Virus record (IMG/VR): IMGVR_UViG_2563366920_000001 | Origin: a virus | Lineage: Duplodnaviria; Heunggongvirae; Uroviricota; Caudoviricetes | Reading direction: 5' to 3' (one strand) | DNA length: 36,963 bases | Shown: piece by piece, positions 1,459 to 14,947 of the stretch | Layout of the letters: each line of letters opens with the position of its first letter | Position numbering within the stretch: the first letter of the stretch is position 1 | Made by a program: the position numbers and the translations under genes | Notes under the pieces: model-generated | Databases searched by the model: none | What the model was told of the DNA's origin: nothing | Seen by the model: only the letters and a program-made list of their open reading frames with translations

Positions 1459-2622
1459 TTACACATCATTAGTACCTTCCTTATTTTTTGACTGGGACAA
1501 ATTTGGGACCGATGGGTTCAGGATCGAGTCTATTTGCCGTGCGTGTTCGGTAAGGTGATTAGGTGCAAGGTGAGCATATCGACGAACCATTTCGATAGAC
1601 TCCCAGCCTCCCATTTCCTGTAACACTGACAACGGGACTCCGGCTTGAACCAGCCAACTTGCCCAGGTGTGTCTCAAGTCGTGAAATCTGAAATCATCAA
1701 TACCAGCCCGTCTCAGCGCCGCTTTCCAGGCTGTGTTTGCGTCATACCGCATCTTCCTTACTGTTGGCGCTTTCGTTCCGTCTGGTTTGGTACAGCTTTC
1801 CTTGTACACAAATACCCAACGGTGATGATTCCCGATTTGTTTTTTCAATACGCGACATGCAGTATCATTCAGCGCAACGCCAATTGCGCGGTTTGATTTA
1901 CTCTCTTCCGGGTTTATCCATGCCACCCGGCGCTGCATATCTATTTGTTGCCATTCAAGGTTGATGATGTTCGAGCGTCTTAAGCCTGTTGCCAGTGCAA
2001 ATTCAACAACAGACTTTAATGGCTCCGGACATTCATCAATCAGCCTTTGTGCTTCATGGGGCTCCAGCCAGCGGATCCGTTTATTCTTTGGTTGAGGCAC
2101 TTTAATAATTGGTGCCTTATCCAGCATTTTCCATTCACGCTCTGCGGCTCTTAGTAGGGCCTTTATAAATGAAAGATGCGTAGCCTTCGTTGCAACGGAC
2201 GCTGGTTTTGGCGTGTATTCTGGAACAGGTTTCCCTTTTTTTCTGCATGCTTCTGCCCTGAGTTTCCAGTTTTCCTCATGACGCCGGTTCGTCATTTTCT
2301 GCATTGCTGAATAAATTTTTGATTCAGTAATGTCTCTTAGTTGCATTCCTGCGAAATGTTGAAGCCAGAATCCGATCCGGCTTTTGTCATCGTCCAGTGA
2401 TTTTTTATGTGCTTTCTCTTCAAGCCACCTGACACACGCTTCCTCGAACGTTATATCAGGTATTTCACCAAGTTTGCTGACCCGCCATGCTTCAGCCTTT
2501 AGCTTGTCATGGAGTTCTGTCGCCTGCCTTTTGTCCTTTGTTCCAAGAGACTGTTTAAATCTTTTACCGTTCGGCAATGTGAAACTGGCGTACCATATTT
2601 CACCTCTGCGGAAGAGTGACAT
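1459..2622 (-). CDS. int: Tyrosine integrase, P22-type (387 aa)
   Basis: ATG at 2622-2620 with GAGGAAAG Shine-Dalgarno. N-terminus [46 protein letters not shown] and C-terminal [39 protein letters not shown] match the P22 Int family catalytic region. Confidence 0.9.
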
Positions 2623-2849: not shown

Positions 2850-3154
2850 TATTTCACCTCTTGCTGTGACATTGTTGAGAAATGGATACCAGCTCGTTGC
2901 TGCCAGACGATCCAACCGAGAGTCATATCCCATGCCATGTATTCGTTATCGCCGTTTTTTGCTCTCCGACGATCTACTAAGTCACCAAAACGCTTTTCCA
3001 TGAATAATTCATAAGCTTCGCGTTCATCTGGTTCTACTTCCAGAGATAGGAGTGCGATTTCATAAGCACGGCGCTCAATATCGTCTCGCACGTCAAGGCT
3101 GCTGATACGCTCTTTAATTTCTTTAATCAGTTCTTTGTCGGTAAAAGTGGTCAT
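2849..3154 (-). CDS. Hypothetical early-left protein (101 aa), possibly YfdT-like
   Basis: ATG at 3154-3152, overlapping the upstream stop as TAATG. Acidic, protein-like composition. Same position and size as yfdT in K-12 CPS-53 (recollection, not verified). Confidence 0.55.
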   Translation of the reverse strand: MTTFTDKELIKEIKERISSLDVRDDIERRAYEIALLSLEVEPDEREAYELFMEKRFGDLVDRRRAKNGDNEYMAWDMTLGWIVWQQRAGIHFSTMSQQEVK

Positions 3155-3516
3155 TATGCTCCAGCCTCCGGTGCTTTTGGCATTACTGCCCAGTGAGTGA
3201 TATTGACGTTTTCAAGGTCCCCGATCTGAAATGTCCACTGCCATTCTCCGGTTTCTTTTTGTCCCCAGGTGTACCAGAGAGAACGCCAGCCAATTAGCCA
3301 GCCTTCTCCGTTAGCATCGAATAACAAAACACTTTCATTTGCTGGTGGCAGTTCAGTTGACACTGGTATTACTTTGTTTTCCTGTGCTGCACATTTAGCT
3401 TCAAGCGCATCGAATTTACGCACCAGGTATTCAGCATCCGTTTCATTCACTTTCAGATCTCGCGGTACACATCTCCCACGAAGAAACCCTTCCATTTCGA
3501 AAACATTCATGCGCAT
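3154..3516 (-). CDS. Hypothetical early-left protein (120 aa), possibly YfdS-like
   Basis: ATG at 3516-3514 with GGAG 8 nt upstream. Trp-rich C-terminal half. Translationally coupled to the downstream gene. Confidence 0.55.
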   Translation of the reverse strand: MRMNVFEMEGFLRGRCVPRDLKVNETDAEYLVRKFDALEAKCAAQENKVIPVSTELPPANESVLLFDANGEGWLIGWRSLWYTWGQKETGEWQWTFQIGDLENVNITHWAVMPKAPEAGA

Positions 3517-4043
3517 TTGCGTAACTCCGATAATTCGTTAAAGCGTTCCATAAACATCCCGTAGGCATGGCCTGGAGCCAGTGGAATCACGTTGAACATC
3601 TCTGTTGCCGGGATACCTTCCAGCACAGGCCAGAAAGAGCCATCATCAAGCCCGAGATCGCGGCGTTCGGTTGCCAGCATAATGAGATCGGCATATTTCA
3701 CTGGCGTGCTCATAACAGGAGGTAACCCGTATTTCTCACGGATTACGGCGTCTATTTTTTCTTCCATCCGTTTATAGTCAGGAAGAAGTCGTTTCAGTTG
3801 TGCGGGGATGTCCTGGCAATATGCTTCTGTTGCATCATGCATTAAAGCTTCAAAAGCAAATTCCTGCGGCACCAGCTGGCTGCAAAGCACCGCATGTTGG
3901 GCGACACTGTAGAAGTGTGAAAGATGTCCTGCAAAGCGACAGATATTTGAAAGGGAAACCGCGATATCGTTAATAACGATGTCGTCTTTATTTATCCTGT
4001 CATAATAAAAATGCTTCCCGGAAAAAGTTTTAATAAATGACAT
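3507..4043 (-). CDS. HD-domain phosphohydrolase-like protein (YfdR-like, 178 aa)
   Basis: ATG at 4043-4041 preceded by GGAGAA. Sequence MSFIKTFSGKHFYYD...NICRFAGHLSHFYSVAQHAVL...LMHDATEAY has HD-motif character and resembles YfdR of prophage CPS-53 as I recall it. Confidence 0.7.
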   Translation of the reverse strand: MSFIKTFSGKHFYYDRINKDDIVINDIAVSLSNICRFAGHLSHFYSVAQHAVLCSQLVPQEFAFEALMHDATEAYCQDIPAQLKRLLPDYKRMEEKIDAVIREKYGLPPVMSTPVKYADLIMLATERRDLGLDDGSFWPVLEGIPATEMFNVIPLAPGHAYGMFMERFNELSELRKCA

Positions 4044-10153: not shown

Positions 10154-10963
10154 ATGAATAATCTGATGGTCATTGATGGTATTGAAGTTCGTCGTGATGC
10201 TTATGGGCGTTACAGCCTGAACGATCTGCATCGCGCAGCAGTAGCATCTGGTGCAAATGCCAGAACCAAGGAGCCGGGAAAGTTTCTTTCCAGCCAACAA
10301 ACTGTTGAGCTTGTTCATGAATTGACCAACACCCAGAATTTGGGTGTTGACCCGGTGAGTGTGATTCATGGGGGAAATGAACGGGGAACGTATGTCTGCA
10401 AGGAACTGGTGTATGCCTATGCAATGTGGATCAGCCCGTCATTCCATCTGAAGGTGATCCGTACTTTCGATATGGTAACCAGCGCACCGGAAAAATTATC
10501 CGGACAGGCTGCTGACAAGATGCAGGCTGGCGTGATCCTGCTGGACTTTATGCGCCGGGAGTTAAACCTGTCTAACTCTTCAGTGCTTGGTGCCTGTCAG
10601 AAACTCCAGGAGGCTGTTGGCTTACCGAATCTGGCACCGCGCTATGCCATTGATGCTCCTGCTGACGCGCCTGATGGCTCAAGCCGCCCCACGCTATCAT
10701 TGAGTGCACTGCTGAAGCAGTATGGTATCCGCCTGACAGCTAATCAGGCATATCACCAGATGGCGAAGCTGGGGATCGTTGAACAACGTGAACGATACAG
10801 CCGCACTGCGATTAACAACATCAAAAAATTCTGGTCGCTGACGGCGAAAGGCTGCATGTTCGGCAAGAACATCACCAGTCCCGCAAATCCGCGCGAGACG
10901 CAGCCGCATTTCTTCGAATCCCGATTCCCTGAGCTGTTAAAGTTGCTCGATACCGTTCATTGA
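10154..10963 (+). CDS. KilA-N domain protein / antirepressor-like (269 aa)
   Basis: ATG at 10154 with GAGGAGAAA Shine-Dalgarno. N-terminus VIDGIEVRRDAYGRYSLNDLHRAA is KilA-N-like; the C-terminal half resembles phage antirepressor (KilAC) domains. Confidence 0.7.
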   Translation: MNNLMVIDGIEVRRDAYGRYSLNDLHRAAVASGANARTKEPGKFLSSQQTVELVHELTNTQNLGVDPVSVIHGGNERGTYVCKELVYAYAMWISPSFHLKVIRTFDMVTSAPEKLSGQAADKMQAGVILLDFMRRELNLSNSSVLGACQKLQEAVGLPNLAPRYAIDAPADAPDGSSRPTLSLSALLKQYGIRLTANQAYHQMAKLGIVEQRERYSRTAINNIKKFWSLTAKGCMFGKNITSPANPRETQPHFFESRFPELLKLLDTVH

Positions 10964-11059
10964 GGTGACCGTGAGAGCACTACTGACCCCTGAAATAGCC
11001 CCGCGTATGGGGATCGTATTGTTCAGACCAGGTTCAGAGCTGATGCCCCTGTTTATGCC

Positions 11060-12608
11060 TGTCTCTTGATCAGATCTCCTGATCAAGAGACTTCATCACC
11101 AGGTAACCCTCAACCATATCCTGAAGTCTGAACCAGCCATCCCACATGACTACCCAACCGGGGCGACCTGTGCGTTTGCTGTCATGCCATCGCCCCAGTT
11201 TCGCCAGTTTCAGACAGGCCCATTTCAGTGTCGGCATCTGTGACGGAAGCGGTTTTCCTTCCAGCTTAACCCACAGCAGTTTCCACTCTGTCGGCGTCAG
11301 TATTTTCTCACAGCTGTCATTTTGTGTTTCTTCACTGATACCGCCCTGCCGCAGGCCCAGCACCCGCACCGCGATAAACGCCTTGATAACCACCATGCGC
11401 TCGAGGTTATCCCGGGTCTGCATTCGCAGCGATTCCACACATGTACCACCACTTTTCCACGCCTTGTGGTATTCCTCTATCAGCCAGCGTCGCTCGTAAT
11501 GGCTGACGATACGTCGCGCATCGGCGGCACTCGCCACTTTTTCTGACGTCAGCAGATGCCAGCAGGCGCCGTCCTCTGCCTGCTCCCGGCAACAGACATA
11601 CGTGAGCGGGAGCGCCTGGCCGCTGTTGTCGGGATTTTTTATGCTGACTTCGCTGTAACTGATGAACATCCGGGCCTGGCGGGCTGCCCGCCCGCCTTTT
11701 TGCATCACATTTAGCGTGTGGCTTCCCGCGGTTGCTAGGACTTCCGGCAGTTCGAAGAGCTTGCCGGGTGCTTCTTCCAGCCGGCGATTCTGTGCTGCAC
11801 GCACCACGAAGCGCTGCCCGTGGCTGACTTTATAATGCAGGTAATGCCAGATATCCGCTTCCCGGTCACAGACAGTGATTACCCGTTTCTGTATCTCCCC
11901 CAGCCGTTCGGCCATGCGCTCCGAAGCCTGCTGCCAGCGGTAACTTTCTTTTTCTTCATAGGGACGTTCTTTTCGCTGGTGCTTAACACCGTAGGTGTCC
12001 GTGGCACGACTCCAGCGCTGCTGTTCGATAAGACCGACTGGCAGGGCGCTGTCGGGGGCGTACATCAGGACAGAGTGAGCCAGCAGCCCGCGCGTCTTCG
12101 GGTTAGTGGTGGTATTCCCCAGGTCATCAGATGCCGTACTGTGACTGAAGTTAATGGTGGTGGTGTCTTCCAGCGCGAGGAGCAGCGGATGAGCCTCACA
12201 TGCCCTTACAGTGGCGGTAAATCCGGCTTCGGCAATGGCTTGCGGGGACACAGACGGGTTACGTATCAGGCGGTACGCACCTTCAACCTGAGCAGTGGAC
12301 TGGGATGATTTCACAATAGAAAGACCTGCATGCTGAGCGAGAGAAGAGGCCAGTGACACAAGGCGTCGTGTACGACGCGGATCACCGAGACGGGCATGTC
12401 CAAACTGCTCGTTAGCCCATGAATAACAATCAGAAAGTACCATAACAGACCCGAAGAAAATGAAATATAAGAGAAGATCAACGGGTGAGGAAAAAGTTCA
12501 AAAAATCGCTGCCGGGGAGGAAGGAAACTACCGGATGGAAAGAGTCCCCCTAAAGCAGACTGACAGACATCACAAATCCCCGGGTGGGGATTTGTGTATA
12601 AGAGACAG
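11060..12608 (-). mobile_element. IS4-family (IS50-like) insertion sequence, about 1549 bp, with target-site duplication
   Basis: Left terminus CTGTCTCTTGATCAGATCT (11060-11078) is identical to the IS50 inside end as I recall it. Right terminus, reverse-complemented, is CTGTCTCTTATACACAAAT (ending 12608), outside-end-like. Flanking direct repeat GTTTATGC at 11052-11059 and 12609-12616. Confidence 0.8.
11070..12443 (-). CDS. tnp: Transposase (IS50/Tn5 Tnp family, 457 aa)
   Basis: ATG at 12443. Conserved blocks GDPRRTRRL, VCDREADI, RWLIEEYHKAWKSG and DSKRTG align with Tn5 transposase. ORF ends inside the inside-end-like terminus as in IS50. Confidence 0.85.
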   Translation of the reverse strand: MVLSDCYSWANEQFGHARLGDPRRTRRLVSLASSLAQHAGLSIVKSSQSTAQVEGAYRLIRNPSVSPQAIAEAGFTATVRACEAHPLLLALEDTTTINFSHSTASDDLGNTTTNPKTRGLLAHSVLMYAPDSALPVGLIEQQRWSRATDTYGVKHQRKERPYEEKESYRWQQASERMAERLGEIQKRVITVCDREADIWHYLHYKVSHGQRFVVRAAQNRRLEEAPGKLFELPEVLATAGSHTLNVMQKGGRAARQARMFISYSEVSIKNPDNSGQALPLTYVCCREQAEDGACWHLLTSEKVASAADARRIVSHYERRWLIEEYHKAWKSGGTCVESLRMQTRDNLERMVVIKAFIAVRVLGLRQGGISEETQNDSCEKILTPTEWKLLWVKLEGKPLPSQMPTLKWACLKLAKLGRWHDSKRTGRPGWVVMWDGWFRLQDMVEGYLVMKSLDQEI

Positions 12609-13535
12609 GTTTATGCAGGGGCGTGTACTGCTGGAGCCTGAGCCGGAACGTTATTCATCTTTCGCCAGTGGTGCCGTTCCCGCGGCATCACAACCGCTGG
12701 CGGATGATCCTGCTGTTCGGGCCGTGTTCCGCAATGAGGCAGTGATCCGTCGTGCTGGTGGCGTGGAATGTCTTGAAAGCTGGTTACTTCGTGAAAAAGG
12801 CTGCCAGTGGCCTCATTCCGACTGGCACAGCGAGAACATGACCACAATGCGACACGCTCCGGGCGCAATCCGTCTGTGCTGGCACTGTGATAACCAGCTG
12901 CGCGATCAGTTCACGGAACGGCTGGAATCAATGGCAACGGATAACTGTGCCCGCTGGGTGTTGTCTGTTGTGCGTCGGGATCTCGGTTTTGATGATAGTC
13001 ACGTTGTGACAATGCCGGAACTGTGCTGGTGGCTGATTCGTAATGACCTGGCGGATGCCTTACCGGAAAGTGCAGCCCGTAAGGCACTGAGATTACCAAA
13101 GCCTGTTGTGCCGTCTGTCACCCGGGAAAGTGACCTTGTGCCTTCGGTTCCTGCCACCAGCATCATCCAGGATAAGGCAAAAAAGGTGCTGGCGCTGAAA
13201 GTGGATCCGGAGTCGCCGGAGTCTTTTATGTTACGCCCAAAACGTCGCCGCTGGGTTAATGAAAAGTACACGCGCTGGGTTAAGACACAGCCGTGTGCAT
13301 GTTGTGGAAAGCCCGCTGATGATCCCCACCACCTGATAGGCCACGGTCAGGGGGGAATGGGTACAAAAGCGCATGACCTCTTTGTGTTGCCTTTGTGCAG
13401 AAAGCATCACGACGAGCTGCATGCGGATACCGTGGCATTTGAAGAGAAGTATGGCTCCCAGCTGGAGCTGATATTTCGTTTTATCGATCGCGCGCTGGCA
13501 ATTGGCGTGCTGGCCTGATTTTGTGGAGAAAGTTG

Positions 13536-13913
13536 ATGCGTGATATTCAGATGGTTCTGGATCGTTGGGGGGCATGGGCGGCGAGTGATAGTTCTGGGGT
13601 AGACTATTCGCCTATAGCTGCTGGGTTTAAAGGGCTTCTTCCCTATACAAGCAAAACACGTCAGGCTTGTTCAGATAGTGATGCATTAATTATTGAAGGT
13701 TGTCTTGCTCGTCTAAAGCAAAAAAGACCTGAAGAACACTCGCTTCTTGTTGCCCATTACCTATACGGTATCTCTAAAAGAAAGCTCGCCAAGGCTCGTA
13801 AAAAGGATGAGAAACTAATACGCATTGAGATACAGATGGCTGAGGGGTTTATTGATGGCTGCCTATCGATGTTGGAAATTAGTCTAGAGATGGACCCCGA
13901 AGTTAAAGATTGA
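13536..13913 (+). CDS. Late antiterminator Q (phage 82 / QuuD-type)
   Basis: ATG at 13536 with GGAG 7 nt upstream (ORF track starts at TTG 13521). N-terminus MRDIQMVLDRWGAWAASD...IAAGFKGL matches Q proteins of 82-like lambdoid prophages as I recall them. Confidence 0.75.
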   Translation: MRDIQMVLDRWGAWAASDSSGVDYSPIAAGFKGLLPYTSKTRQACSDSDALIIEGCLARLKQKRPEEHSLLVAHYLYGISKRKLAKARKKDEKLIRIEIQMAEGFIDGCLSMLEISLEMDPEVKD

Positions 13914-13920
13914 TTATTGA

Positions 13921-13945
13921 AGCCCGATTACTCGGGCTTTTGTTC
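13921..13945. terminator. Hairpin terminator between the convergent Q and moron genes
   Basis: AGCCCGA-TTAC-TCGGGCT stem-loop (13921-13939) followed by TTTTGTT on the plus strand. The stop codon of the minus-strand 339-aa gene lies in the loop. Confidence 0.5.
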
Positions 13946-14947
13946 CACATCTCGAACATAGAGAATTACTGCTGACTTAATGTCACCATCGACGTGTTTT
14001 GCGTTAATGCTCAAATGTACAGGCTTTCTTTCCCACTCAGCTCGCTGCAATGCTTCTTTGTTTCCGGATTCATCAAGGAAAACATCCTGAACTACGCAGG
14101 TTAGACGTTGGTCGGTATCTACGCGTCGGACCTTAACTTTGAAACTCTCTGGGTCAGTATTATTGACTTCTTCAATTCGGTAAATACCATCAATCCTCAT
14201 TTCTGATGAACGTCTACGAGCATTCGTAACCAACTCTTTCGCCATTTCAGAATCAATAGTAACGCCATCAATTTGAGCGTTATCTGAACGCACAAAGGAT
14301 TTGACCATTTGGGTTTTAGCGTCATACGACATACGGTCCATGTTATCGAGAAGTGGTTTTTCCGCAATCATTTCTGAAATAACCCGCAGGCGTTTAGTTT
14401 CTTGCTCGCTCATGATCTGCATAGTCCGGAGATGTTCTTTCTCTCCATCCTTAGCAATTTCTGCAAGGCGAATATCTTTGCGGTTGTCCAAGAACCGTTT
14501 AAATACTGTTACTCCGCCCCAGATGACTGCTGCGCCGAGAACAGTAAACATGATCTCAGTTGCGTTCATTTTACCAACAAGTTCCTGTGTGAGTTTGGTT
14601 AAAAAGCCATCAATGTTGATTTCTACTATTGAAGAACCCTGTTCTACCGTAACTTCTATTTCTAGGGCATCAAGTTCTTCTTTGGTCAGTTTGCGGACGT
14701 CAGGGACACCGTACTTGGCAAGGGCATATGATTTGTTGATTTGAGCTTGCATTTCAACAAATCCCTTCATAACTGAAGGTGTTAGCGATCTGTTGAATTT
14801 TTCACCGGTTAATCTGATGGTAAGGTTTGGCCATCCGTTGAAACTTAAACTGTCAGGTAAACCATAACCATCAAGATAGCTTTCAAGCAAATCGAAGGCT
14901 TGCTGCTCAGATTCAATGTCTACATGAATCTCATCAAACTTATCCAA
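13928..14947 (-). CDS. Hypothetical membrane protein (339 aa, one predicted TM helix); moron gene of unknown function
   Basis: Long opposite-strand ORF in a markedly AT-rich segment. TTG start at 14947 with GAGGA 7 nt upstream; first in-frame ATG is 59 codons downstream. Hydrophobic stretch IMFTVLGAAVIWGGVTVF mid-protein. No family recognised. Confidence 0.6.
   Translation of the reverse strand: MDKFDEIHVDIESEQQAFDLLESYLDGYGLPDSLSFNGWPNLTIRLTGEKFNRSLTPSVMKGFVEMQAQINKSYALAKYGVPDVRKLTKEELDALEIEVTVEQGSSIVEINIDGFLTKLTQELVGKMNATEIMFTVLGAAVIWGGVTVFKRFLDNRKDIRLAEIAKDGEKEHLRTMQIMSEQETKRLRVISEMIAEKPLLDNMDRMSYDAKTQMVKSFVRSDNAQIDGVTIDSEMAKELVTNARRRSSEMRIDGIYRIEEVNNTDPESFKVKVRRVDTDQRLTCVVQDVFLDESGNKEALQRAEWERKPVHLSINAKHVDGDIKSAVILYVRDVEQKPE

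Follow-up and report, generated by a model that had tools for sequence, protein, structure and literature searches.

A copy of ISEc13 in the DUF968 gene of an SfV-like E. coli prophage, very probably inserted at a palindrome of the kind that the element prefers

The locus considered here raises three linked questions: which element splits a prophage gene lying between positions 10971 and 13518, what did this gene look like beforehand, and why does the element sit at this particular nucleotide? The window, meaning the whole stretch of 36,963 nucleotides that was analysed, carries an SfV-like lambdoid prophage integrated at thrW, a tRNA gene of E. coli, with proA, tRNA-Thr(CGT) and the integrase at 1-2622. 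Over its whole length, Rfam models matched tRNA only. The answer defended below, which we hold with high confidence, is that the known element ISEc13 transposed into the DUF968 gene of this prophage at a palindrome of its preferred type. The insertion itself is an already known kind of event, one more IS eroding a prophage, and the main use of describing it is correct annotation. The target preference of the element is a modest side finding.

The sequence identifies the element as ISEc13, which was already catalogued under that name. Positions 11059-12608 form a complete copy of 1550 bp, assigned to the minus strand according to its transposase gene and belonging to the Tn5/IS50-like part of the IS4 family. 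The name comes from the RefSeq/PGAP annotation 'IS4-like element ISEc13 family transposase'. The ISfinder convention for copies of the same IS (at least about 95% nucleotide identity, at least 98% for the transposase) was applied against RefSeq-annotated ISEc13 copies, among which those of E. coli O127:H6 E2348/69 are near-identical to the window element. Identity to other copies is 99.7-99.9% over the full 1550 bp, copies occur in 874 complete E. coli genomes, to which the window copy is 99.9% identical, and only 1-4 nucleotides separate it from other copies, among them a synonymous T at IS position 654 that is private to this copy. In the phage records that were searched, no ISEc13 was found apart from a 33-nt fragment.

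An earlier note on this DNA had placed a 1549-bp element at 11060-12608. The IS is real and its right boundary stands; its first base has to be moved to 11059, which gives 1550 bp. Indeed, position 11059, a C, is part of the element, as other full-length copies begin with CTGTCTC whatever base precedes them. Twenty-one other genomic copies measure 1549-1550 bp (two of them 1549) and share their first and last 15 nucleotides. The comparison of the terminal repeats with other copies, proposed in that note, thus shows common termini in more than 20 copies.

The left terminal repeat, CTGTCTCTTGATCAGATCT (11059-11077, plus strand), is identical at 19/19 positions to the IS50 inside end, as had been claimed. 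The right one, CTGTCTCTTATACACAAAT when read inward (12590-12608, minus strand), adjoins the start of the transposase gene and matches the outside end at 17/19 positions, in line with the resemblance noticed before, and the mosaic end also at 17/19; the outside-end and mosaic-end sequences were verified against oligonucleotides given in PMC3347997. The two ends agree with each other at positions 1-9, and each is present once in the window, with 0 occurrences expected by chance. The left end lies within a palindrome with 13-bp arms (11061-11091) containing three GATC sites, at 11068, 11073 and 11081, and a subterminal hairpin with 11-bp arms is found near the right end (12571-12596).

The transposase gene occupies 11070-12443 on the minus strand. 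Its 457-residue product is identical at 457/457 positions to RefSeq WP_000244358.1 and aligns with the Tn5 transposase with E = 6e-84. Predicted catalytic residues D93, D193 and E323, together with the YREK signature Y316/R319/E323/K330, fall opposite D97/D188/E326 and Y319/R322/E326/K333 of Tn5. The description as an intact Tn5-family transposase is borne out by these alignments and by profile searches: NCBIfam NF033590 scores 514 bits (cut-off 160), Pfam Tnp_DNA_bind 70.1 bits (cut-off 24) and DDE_Tnp_1 30.9 (cut-off 23). Dimer_Tnp_Tn5, at 24.1 bits, lies below its cut-off of 26.7, and the corresponding region still aligns up to Tn5 residue 469. ISEc13 is a single-ORF DDE transposon that would move by cut-and-paste; homology with the Tn5 transposase suggests that this involves hairpin intermediates within a dimeric synaptic complex.

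What preceded the insertion can be read from the flanks. The element is bordered by an exact 8-bp duplication, GTTTATGC, at 11051-11058 and at 12609-12616, of which the uninterrupted site possesses a single copy, as in the intact locus L001. ATG 12613 falls within the right-hand copy. The exact 8-bp form of the duplication reported earlier is retained, but the alternative reading as 9 bp with one mismatch was discarded: the supposed ninth base at the left is where the IS begins, and the empty site, which reads CCCCTGTTTATGCAGGGG, has a single C. At the occupied site, the two junction k-mers combine an IS end with GTTTATGCAGGGG. Deletion of 11059-12616 yields a 990-nt ORF of 329 codons that starts at GTG 10971 and stops at 13518, the continuity of which had been predicted; its product is identical at 329/329 positions to WP_001360050.1, the RefSeq DUF968 protein of L001. 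The comparison with related prophages devoid of the IS points the same way, with a continuous gene and an identical product. The intact protein is encoded by thousands of E. coli prophages. The uninterrupted junction was matched, with identities reaching 99.6%, in 2,264 complete E. coli genomes, where one 990-nt DUF968 CDS is annotated, and also, at about 98%, in phages SfV, cdtI and mEp460 and in Stx2c phages.

The 5′ fragment of the gene (10971-11058, plus strand) comprises 29 codons and one nucleotide; its frame continues into the IS and ends at TGA 11067-11069, giving a 32-residue peptide. The GTG start is the one used by RefSeq in L001 and is preceded by a Shine-Dalgarno sequence, GAGGTGA, at 10962-10968. 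Since all four variable positions in this fragment (4/4) are synonymous in the DUF968 frame, the 5′ extension is coding. The 3′ fragment (12609-13518, plus strand), 301 codons from ATG 12613, retains the whole Pfam DUF968 domain (PF06147, 272 bits for a cut-off of 27.8, residues 132-298 of the fragment) and an HNH-like motif. The match to HNHc_6 is borderline (27.1 for a cut-off of 26.6), and one phage record labels a homologue 'HNH endonuclease' by annotation. That the insertion splits a DUF968/HNH-like prophage gene is hence confirmed by the identity of the rejoined product with the RefSeq protein. The insertion of ISEc13 falls in codon 30 of this gene, which belongs to the 'nin-region', and would abolish the full-length protein. 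The interrupted gene is non-essential to the prophage. For annotation, two DUF968 fragments together with an 'IS4 family transposase' should be recorded as one disrupted gene plus ISEc13.

Why the element lies at this nucleotide may be approached from its other insertion sites. In 48/56 distinct flanks, the target fits the motif CCCC-N10-GGGG, with a GGG starting at +8 to +13, compared with 6.6% in the background (p about 2e-48). G is found 41, 43, 52 and 44 times at +10, +11, +12 and +13, respectively, and the G-run is missing from 8/56 flanks. Many ISEc13 sites are terminator hairpins. The yccJ-agp terminator was struck repeatedly and in both orientations, and insertion in both orientations at the same site is observed at two loci. 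Among the 19 copies that have a duplication, its length is 7 bp in two, 8 bp in nine, 9 bp in six and 10 bp in two, within the range given for the IS4 family (PMC2266710). Duplication length does not follow simply from arm spacing: the fixed rule that was tried fails for L003 and L008.

The DUF968 site conforms to this motif. Its left half, an arm GCCCCTG plus the loop, occupies 11043-11058 and, together with AGGGGC at 12617-12622, rebuilds GCCCCTG-TTTATG-CAGGGGC, which the codons P-L-F-M-Q-G of the gene spell; the 22-bp target is GCCCCTGTTTATGCAGGGGC. The folding energy of this site as a single strand is -8.8 kcal/mol (z = -4.5), and these hairpin-like codons appear to mimic a terminator hairpin. 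The choice of site is non-random: ISEc13 favours the centres of GC-rich palindromes, and many of these palindromes are hairpins of intrinsic terminators. Target selection may be due to the transposase itself and, by analogy with Tn5, a dimeric synaptic complex would read both symmetric arms, either as duplex sequence or as an extruded hairpin.

The same site is occupied elsewhere. The window's orientation is found at the DUF968 site in L015, L017 and L177, and the opposite IS end occurs at the same DUF968 nucleotide in L014, L016 and L018. In L024 (complete genome CP148541.1), both junctions were recovered; there, the IS is inverted relative to the window and flanked by the same duplicated 8 bp. 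Comparison of these loci indicates that the same nucleotide is hit independently, in the other orientation and in other strains. In principle, one ancestral insertion might have been spread among prophages by recombination, so that no target hotspot would be needed. Recombination could indeed produce L015 and L177, which keep the window's orientation and differ in downstream modules or alleles, and L017 is simply the window's own prophage, identical over 2900/2900 nucleotides. However, the opposite orientation combined with the same duplication, in L024 as in L014, L016 and L018, would require swapped flanks. Moreover, the site fits a motif drawn from dozens of unrelated loci, and the yccJ-agp terminator behaves alike, again in both orientations. 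A single origin is therefore hardly credible. On the reading preferred here, the DUF968 site was hit at least twice because ISEc13 strongly prefers short GC-rich palindromes.

Recurrence does not mean frequency. In the window's orientation, the insertion was found in none of the 5,426 complete E. coli genomes that were searched, a synthetic query for the opposite orientation found none in complete E. coli genomes, and 0 of the 2,264 complete E. coli genomes that have the site are occupied. The DUF968 site would therefore be a hotspot relative to random DNA, yet one that is seldom occupied. The earlier view that the insertion is recent is a reasonable one, given the very few differences that separate the IS from other copies and the lack of the insertion in this whole set of complete genomes.

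The downstream consequences of the insertion bear on a further explanation of its recurrence. The KilA-N domain gene (10154-10963, plus strand) lies directly upstream of the DUF968 gene, an order that is unchanged in prophages without the IS. The gene of antiterminator Q (13536-13913, plus strand; Pfam Phage_antitermQ, 177 bits) begins 18 nt past the DUF968 stop; its call, 125 residues long, was taken from L017. Further downstream, a 339-residue ORF (13928-14947) gave no PADLOC match and no Pfam match above the cut-off. Because the transposase gene is antisense and terminator-like hairpins occur on the phage-sense strand, transcription reaching Q is probably reduced, and late-gene expression of the prophage would weaken. 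Within the IS, the plus strand carries five terminator-like sites for 1.5 expected, all of them matches at pattern level. A polar effect deduced from such matches would fall most likely on Q, and phage antitermination could read through.

It may accordingly be imagined that insertions just upstream of Q disable the late genes and that selection favours lysogens carrying them, the prophage being domesticated in this way. The position directly upstream of Q, the hairpins that the IS carries on its phage-sense strand and the existence of occupied sites in several lineages would all suit such selection. However, selection alone predicts insertions scattered over the region upstream of Q, whereas one exact nucleotide is hit; the site-bearing complete genomes are uniformly unoccupied; and the motif accounts for the position without selection. 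As the cause of recurrence, selection appears unlikely, although it could act alongside target preference, the explanation that we retain.

Another proposal was that the 3′ fragment is expressed from an outward promoter. The 301-codon ORF is indeed open from ATG 12613, but the same frame reaches back to ATG 12460 inside the IS, so that the ORF starts there and has 352 codons. A crude scan of 10900-12800 on both strands detected no sigma-70-like promoter, the transposase promoter being missed as well, and no hybrid -35/-10 arrangement was seen by eye across the right junction. The AGG stands only 3 nt ahead of ATG 12613, a poor spacing that leaves no usable Shine-Dalgarno sequence. The outward promoter thus found no support.

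An adaptive version of this proposal would have the outward promoter and the duplicated ATG 12613 provide a functional truncated DUF968/HNH protein of 301 residues. Its appeal lies in the open frame with its complete DUF968 domain, in the location of the ATG 4 nt outside the IS and in the fact that gene callers at times choose this same ATG in intact genes (e.g. L013). Against it stand not only the missing promoter in the scanned region and the missing ribosome-binding site, but also the absence of the 352-residue IS-DUF968 fusion ORF from records of called genes. In addition, at least four other loci have the opposite orientation at the identical nucleotide, where a different end faces the gene. 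Since the element occurs in the opposite orientation at this nucleotide elsewhere, an orientation-specific benefit is not needed to explain its retention. An adaptive origin of this kind is very unlikely, and plain transposition into a preferred target is the reading kept here.

Compared with IS50/Tn5, ISEc13 shows a transposase homologous across the DNA-binding N-terminus and the DDE/YREK core and alignable in the C-terminal dimerisation region. It likewise has a single ORF, 5′-CTG termini, a perfect inside-end match that includes the Dam GATC sites and a close outside-end match. Nevertheless, its transposase has clearly diverged (457 residues as against 476 in Tn5, with a dimerisation domain below the Pfam cut-off), its duplication is modally 8 bp (7-10) rather than fixed at 9 bp as in IS50, and it strongly prefers palindromes, unlike Tn5. 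Tn5 is used precisely because its insertion is almost random. Another IS4-family member, IS231A, reportedly has the target consensus GGG-N5-CCC. ISEc13 shares with IS231A an IS4-family transposase and a short symmetric motif of G/C runs around the duplicated bases; it differs in arm polarity, in arm spacing and in subgroup, IS231A having 5′-CAT ends, duplications of 10-12 bp and Gram-positive hosts. The target specificity of IS231 is noted in a review of the IS4 family, in which ISEc13 is not mentioned (PMC2266710). Like IS1397, ISKpn1, IS621 and the IS4-family ISRm22 (PMC1525189), all of which target REP sequences or palindromes, ISEc13 has its insertions concentrated in extragenic GC-rich palindromes. 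Its targets do not form a single repeat family, however: it accepts any palindrome of the form CCCC-N10-GGGG, whether a unique terminator or, as here, coding sequence. In the searchable literature, which ISfinder and subscription journals lie outside, no description of the target preference of ISEc13 was found, and on terminator targeting only the REP-targeting elements were retrieved. Ten papers name ISEc13 and, by their titles and abstracts, appear to mention it only incidentally.

Such a preference could help predict where ISEc13 lands, namely in terminators and palindromes, and could help explain prophage genes broken repeatedly at one nucleotide. A target-selective relative of Tn5 could also help explain how synaptic complexes of the Tn5 type read target DNA. 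More tentatively, and with some doubt on our part, ISEc13 may sit in a Tn5-like clade that selects GC-rich palindromes and terminator hairpins, the DUF968 hairpin being a hotspot for either orientation. For ISEc13, the target would then be CCCC-N10-GGGG, perhaps cut symmetrically to give duplications of 7-10 bp. If this is true, recurrent insertion in the DUF968 gene could repeatedly cripple the late genes of SfV-like and lambdoid prophages. The exact 38-nt right end has 0 matches among GTDB species representatives, and its 23-nt version matches there only a single E. coli contig besides relatives from other genera. This 23-nt end, adjoining the transposase gene, is shared by the wider clade, which includes elements of Vibrio, Shewanella, Neiella, Alishewanella and other genera. 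The marine relatives occupy terminator hairpins whose T-run faces the start of the transposase gene.

The insertion sequence that splits the prophage DUF968 gene occupies 1550 bp (11059-12608), with its transposase gene on the minus strand. Its left end, CTGTCTCTTGATCAGATCT, matches the IS50 inside end at 19/19 positions. The right end, read inward as CTGTCTCTTATACACAAAT, agrees at 17/19 positions with the IS50 outside end and equally with the Tn5 mosaic end (17/19). The outside-end and mosaic-end reference sequences were confirmed against printed oligonucleotides (PMC3347997), and the inside-end sequence is also present in a primer for the Tn5 nptII promoter (PMC5458577). A single occurrence of each end is found in the window (none predicted by chance). 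The earlier note had recognized these Tn5/IS50-type ends, but it placed the left boundary one base inward (1549 bp, 11060-12608). All 21 other genomic copies, of 1549-1550 bp, begin with CTGTCTC whatever base precedes, and the C at 11059 is therefore part of the element. Hence the target-site duplication is an exact 8-bp direct repeat, GTTTATGC, at 11051-11058 and 12609-12616, as had been proposed. The alternative version of 9 bp with one mismatch is rejected, its ninth base being the first base of the IS; the empty site reads CCCCTGTTTATGCAGGGG.

Over its full length, the element is 99.7-99.9% identical to copies annotated by RefSeq as "IS4-like element ISEc13 family transposase". Judged from this annotation, it is ISEc13 itself, more than merely an IS50-like element. 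A near-full-length copy is found in 874 of 5,426 complete E. coli genomes, and the O127:H6 strain E2348/69 carries about 30. Relative to others, the window copy has 1-4 nt differences, one of them private and synonymous. Perfect subterminal palindromes are observed at both ends. On the left (11061-11091), the arms measure 13 bp and three Dam GATC sites are present. On the right (12571-12596), the arms measure 11 bp, CACAAATCCCC/GGGGATTTGTG, and the palindrome's core, CCCC...GGGG, resembles ISEc13's own target motif.

The transposase gene (11070-12443, minus strand) encodes 457 aa, identical at every residue to WP_000244358.1. The protein matches the Pfam families Tnp_DNA_bind and DDE_Tnp_1, with a sub-threshold match to the Tn5 dimerisation domain, and scores 514 bits with the NCBIfam IS4 model (cut-off 160). 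It aligns end to end with the Tn5 transposase (E = 6e-84) and conserves the catalytic residues D93, D193 and E323 and the YREK motif (Y316, R319, E323, K330), in keeping with the earlier description of an intact enzyme of the Tn5 family.

Removal of 11059-12616, that is, of the IS and one repeat copy, fuses GTG 10971 with the stop codon at 13518 in a 990-nt ORF, as expected from the first reading of the sequence. The product is identical over 329/329 aa to WP_001360050.1. Comparison with related prophages lacking the IS, which had been suggested as a check, shows the junction uninterrupted in 2,264 complete genomes of E. coli (identity up to 99.6%) and, at about 98%, in phages SfV, cdtI, mEp460 and Stx2c-converting phages. 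In the E. coli empty-site loci, the annotation gives one CDS, "DUF968 domain-containing protein", starting at the same GTG. This start is preceded by GAGGTGA. In the 5' 29 codons, the four positions that vary among related loci are all synonymous in the GTG frame and not in the other two, a pattern that supports the upstream start. With such a coding 5' region, the IS splits a real CDS. The 5' stub ends at a TGA (11067-11069) within the IS end, and the 3' remnant retains the entire Pfam DUF968 domain (272 bits). Some gene callers choose the internal ATG as the start of the intact gene. For instance, the uninterrupted gene at 3001-3906 of locus L013 (GCA_000249415.2) is called as a 301-aa product. 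Therefore, truncated-looking DUF968 entries in databases are not all IS-disrupted.

The target choice of ISEc13 was derived from the flanks of the 21 genomic copies and of 51 metagenome loci (L002-L028, L137-L187), numbered outward from either end with +1 as the first base outside the IS. Among 56 distinct flanks, G occupies +10, +11, +12 and +13 in 41, 43, 52 and 44, respectively. GGG beginning at +8 to +13 is found in 48 of the 56, versus 6.6% of random window positions (p about 2e-48). From these G-run positions, the target is CCCC-N10-GGGG, cut with a roughly symmetric stagger. Duplications measure 8 bp in nine copies, 9 bp in six, 7 bp in two and 10 bp in two. Many of the sites are intergenic (intrinsic) terminator hairpins. 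That of yccJ-agp, CTCCCCCGCTTCACGCGGGGGAGTTTT, is occupied in five loci (L006, L007, L021, L010, L153), in both orientations and with 8- or 9-bp duplications. Same-orientation copies at this terminator show 8 bp in L006 and 9 bp in L007 and L021, a difference explained by separate, independent hits or by a 1-bp change arising later. The DUF968 codons GCCCCTG-TTTATG-CAGGGGC (window 11043-11058 and 12609-12622) fit CCCC-N10-GGGG exactly. They form a 7-bp stem with a 6-nt loop, and as single-stranded DNA the site folds at -8.8 kcal/mol (z = -4.5).

In genome CP148541.1, the flanks of two copies, L025 and L026 (about 2.30 and 2.37 Mb), have been exchanged. Sequence to the left of L025 finds its partner to the right of L026 (CTGGTTCG), and the other two flanks together yield TTGGGGAG. 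This swap implies that recombination between the two copies has rearranged about 60 kb, probably by inversion. L011, in E2348/69, is also without duplication.

Occupied DUF968 sites were located by looking up the 301-aa remnant, which leads to contigs breaking within an ISEc13 end. These break at exactly the window's junction, AGAGACAG|GTTTATG. L015 and L017 carry the IS in the window's orientation, and L017 represents the same prophage since it is identical for 2900 nt downstream. L014, L016 and L018 show the opposite IS end at that nucleotide, followed by different downstream phage modules. In L024 (complete genome CP148541.1), both junctions are available and reveal an opposite-orientation insertion at the identical position, with the same 8-bp duplication. 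A metagenome contig (L177) provides one more occupied site; among 5,426 complete RefSeq E. coli genomes, no insertion at the DUF968 site was found. Because orientation cannot flip without exchanging the flanks, these sequences indicate that this nucleotide has been struck independently at least twice.

Elements of about 1.48-1.5 kb (L029-L136) in Vibrio, Neiella, Shewanella, Alishewanella, Aliagarivorans, Photobacterium and others share with ISEc13 the 23-nt end next to the transposase gene start, GGGGATTTGTGTATAAGAGACAG. These relatives sit within terminator-like hairpins, with a half stem and then a T-run flanking the end nearest the start of the transposase gene. T is found at +15 to +17 in 75-85 of 103 of their flanks, an orientation bias measured from one end only. 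Seven of nine full copies have 8-10-bp duplications corresponding to the loop and inner stem of such hairpins. The preference for palindromes and terminators looks clade-wide. The relatives also have an inward-facing terminator-like hairpin just within the shared end (AAAAAAATCCCC...GGGGATTT).

Insertions of this kind are already known, and the element responsible already has a name. A preference for symmetric or palindromic targets is likewise known in the IS4 family and elsewhere, as illustrated by the target specificity of IS231, of the IS4 family (PMC2266710), and by REP-targeting elements including the IS4-family ISRm22 (PMC1525189). No statement on ISEc13 target choice was found in open-access literature text. 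At most, the preference adds a new example of a known behaviour, though one of some note: Tn5 itself is prized for near-random insertion, whereas ISEc13 strongly prefers palindromic targets. Only this palindrome/terminator preference and the recurrent DUF968 hotspot merit follow-up.

The host element is an SfV-like prophage at thrW. The window starts in proA, followed by thrW, encoding tRNA-Thr(CGT) (1369-1444), and a tyrosine integrase gene (1459-2622, minus strand); this arrangement (1-2622) marks the prophage's left attachment junction. The remainder joins a lambdoid early region (RusA, KilA-N, DUF968, Q) to a late region of the contractile-tail type. The antiterminator gene Q (13536-13913) begins 18 nt past the DUF968 stop codon. 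Because the transposase gene runs antisense to early-right transcription of the phage and the phage-sense strand within the IS has five terminator-like hairpins (1.5 expected in a pattern scan), it may reasonably be inferred that the IS would reduce transcription into Q; phage antitermination could override these terminator-like sites.

The earlier note had also imagined expression of the 301-codon C-terminal ORF from an outward promoter. This ORF is indeed open from ATG 12613 and reaches back to ATG 12460 inside the IS. However, the promoter was speculative, and a crude scan found no sigma-70-like site on either strand. An AGG 3 nt upstream is the only purine-rich stretch before ATG 12613, and the 352-aa IS-DUF968 fusion corresponds to no called gene on record. 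An orientation-specific benefit is not needed since the same site elsewhere carries the IS in the opposite orientation. Apart from this promoter, the initial observation is confirmed and its interpretation supported.

Finally, each related prophage carries a different reverse-strand cargo in the slot separating Q from the DNA methylase/holin genes. In the window, this cargo is a 339-aa ORF (13928-14947, minus strand) with no PADLOC match and no Pfam match above cut-off. The equivalent slot encodes, on the reverse strand, a 1050-aa protein with Metallophos and weak NACHT matches in L015, a 392-aa protein and an NA37 protein in L016, and 182-aa and 308-aa proteins in L018. The slot has the look of a variable hotspot of accessory-gene (moron) or defence type.
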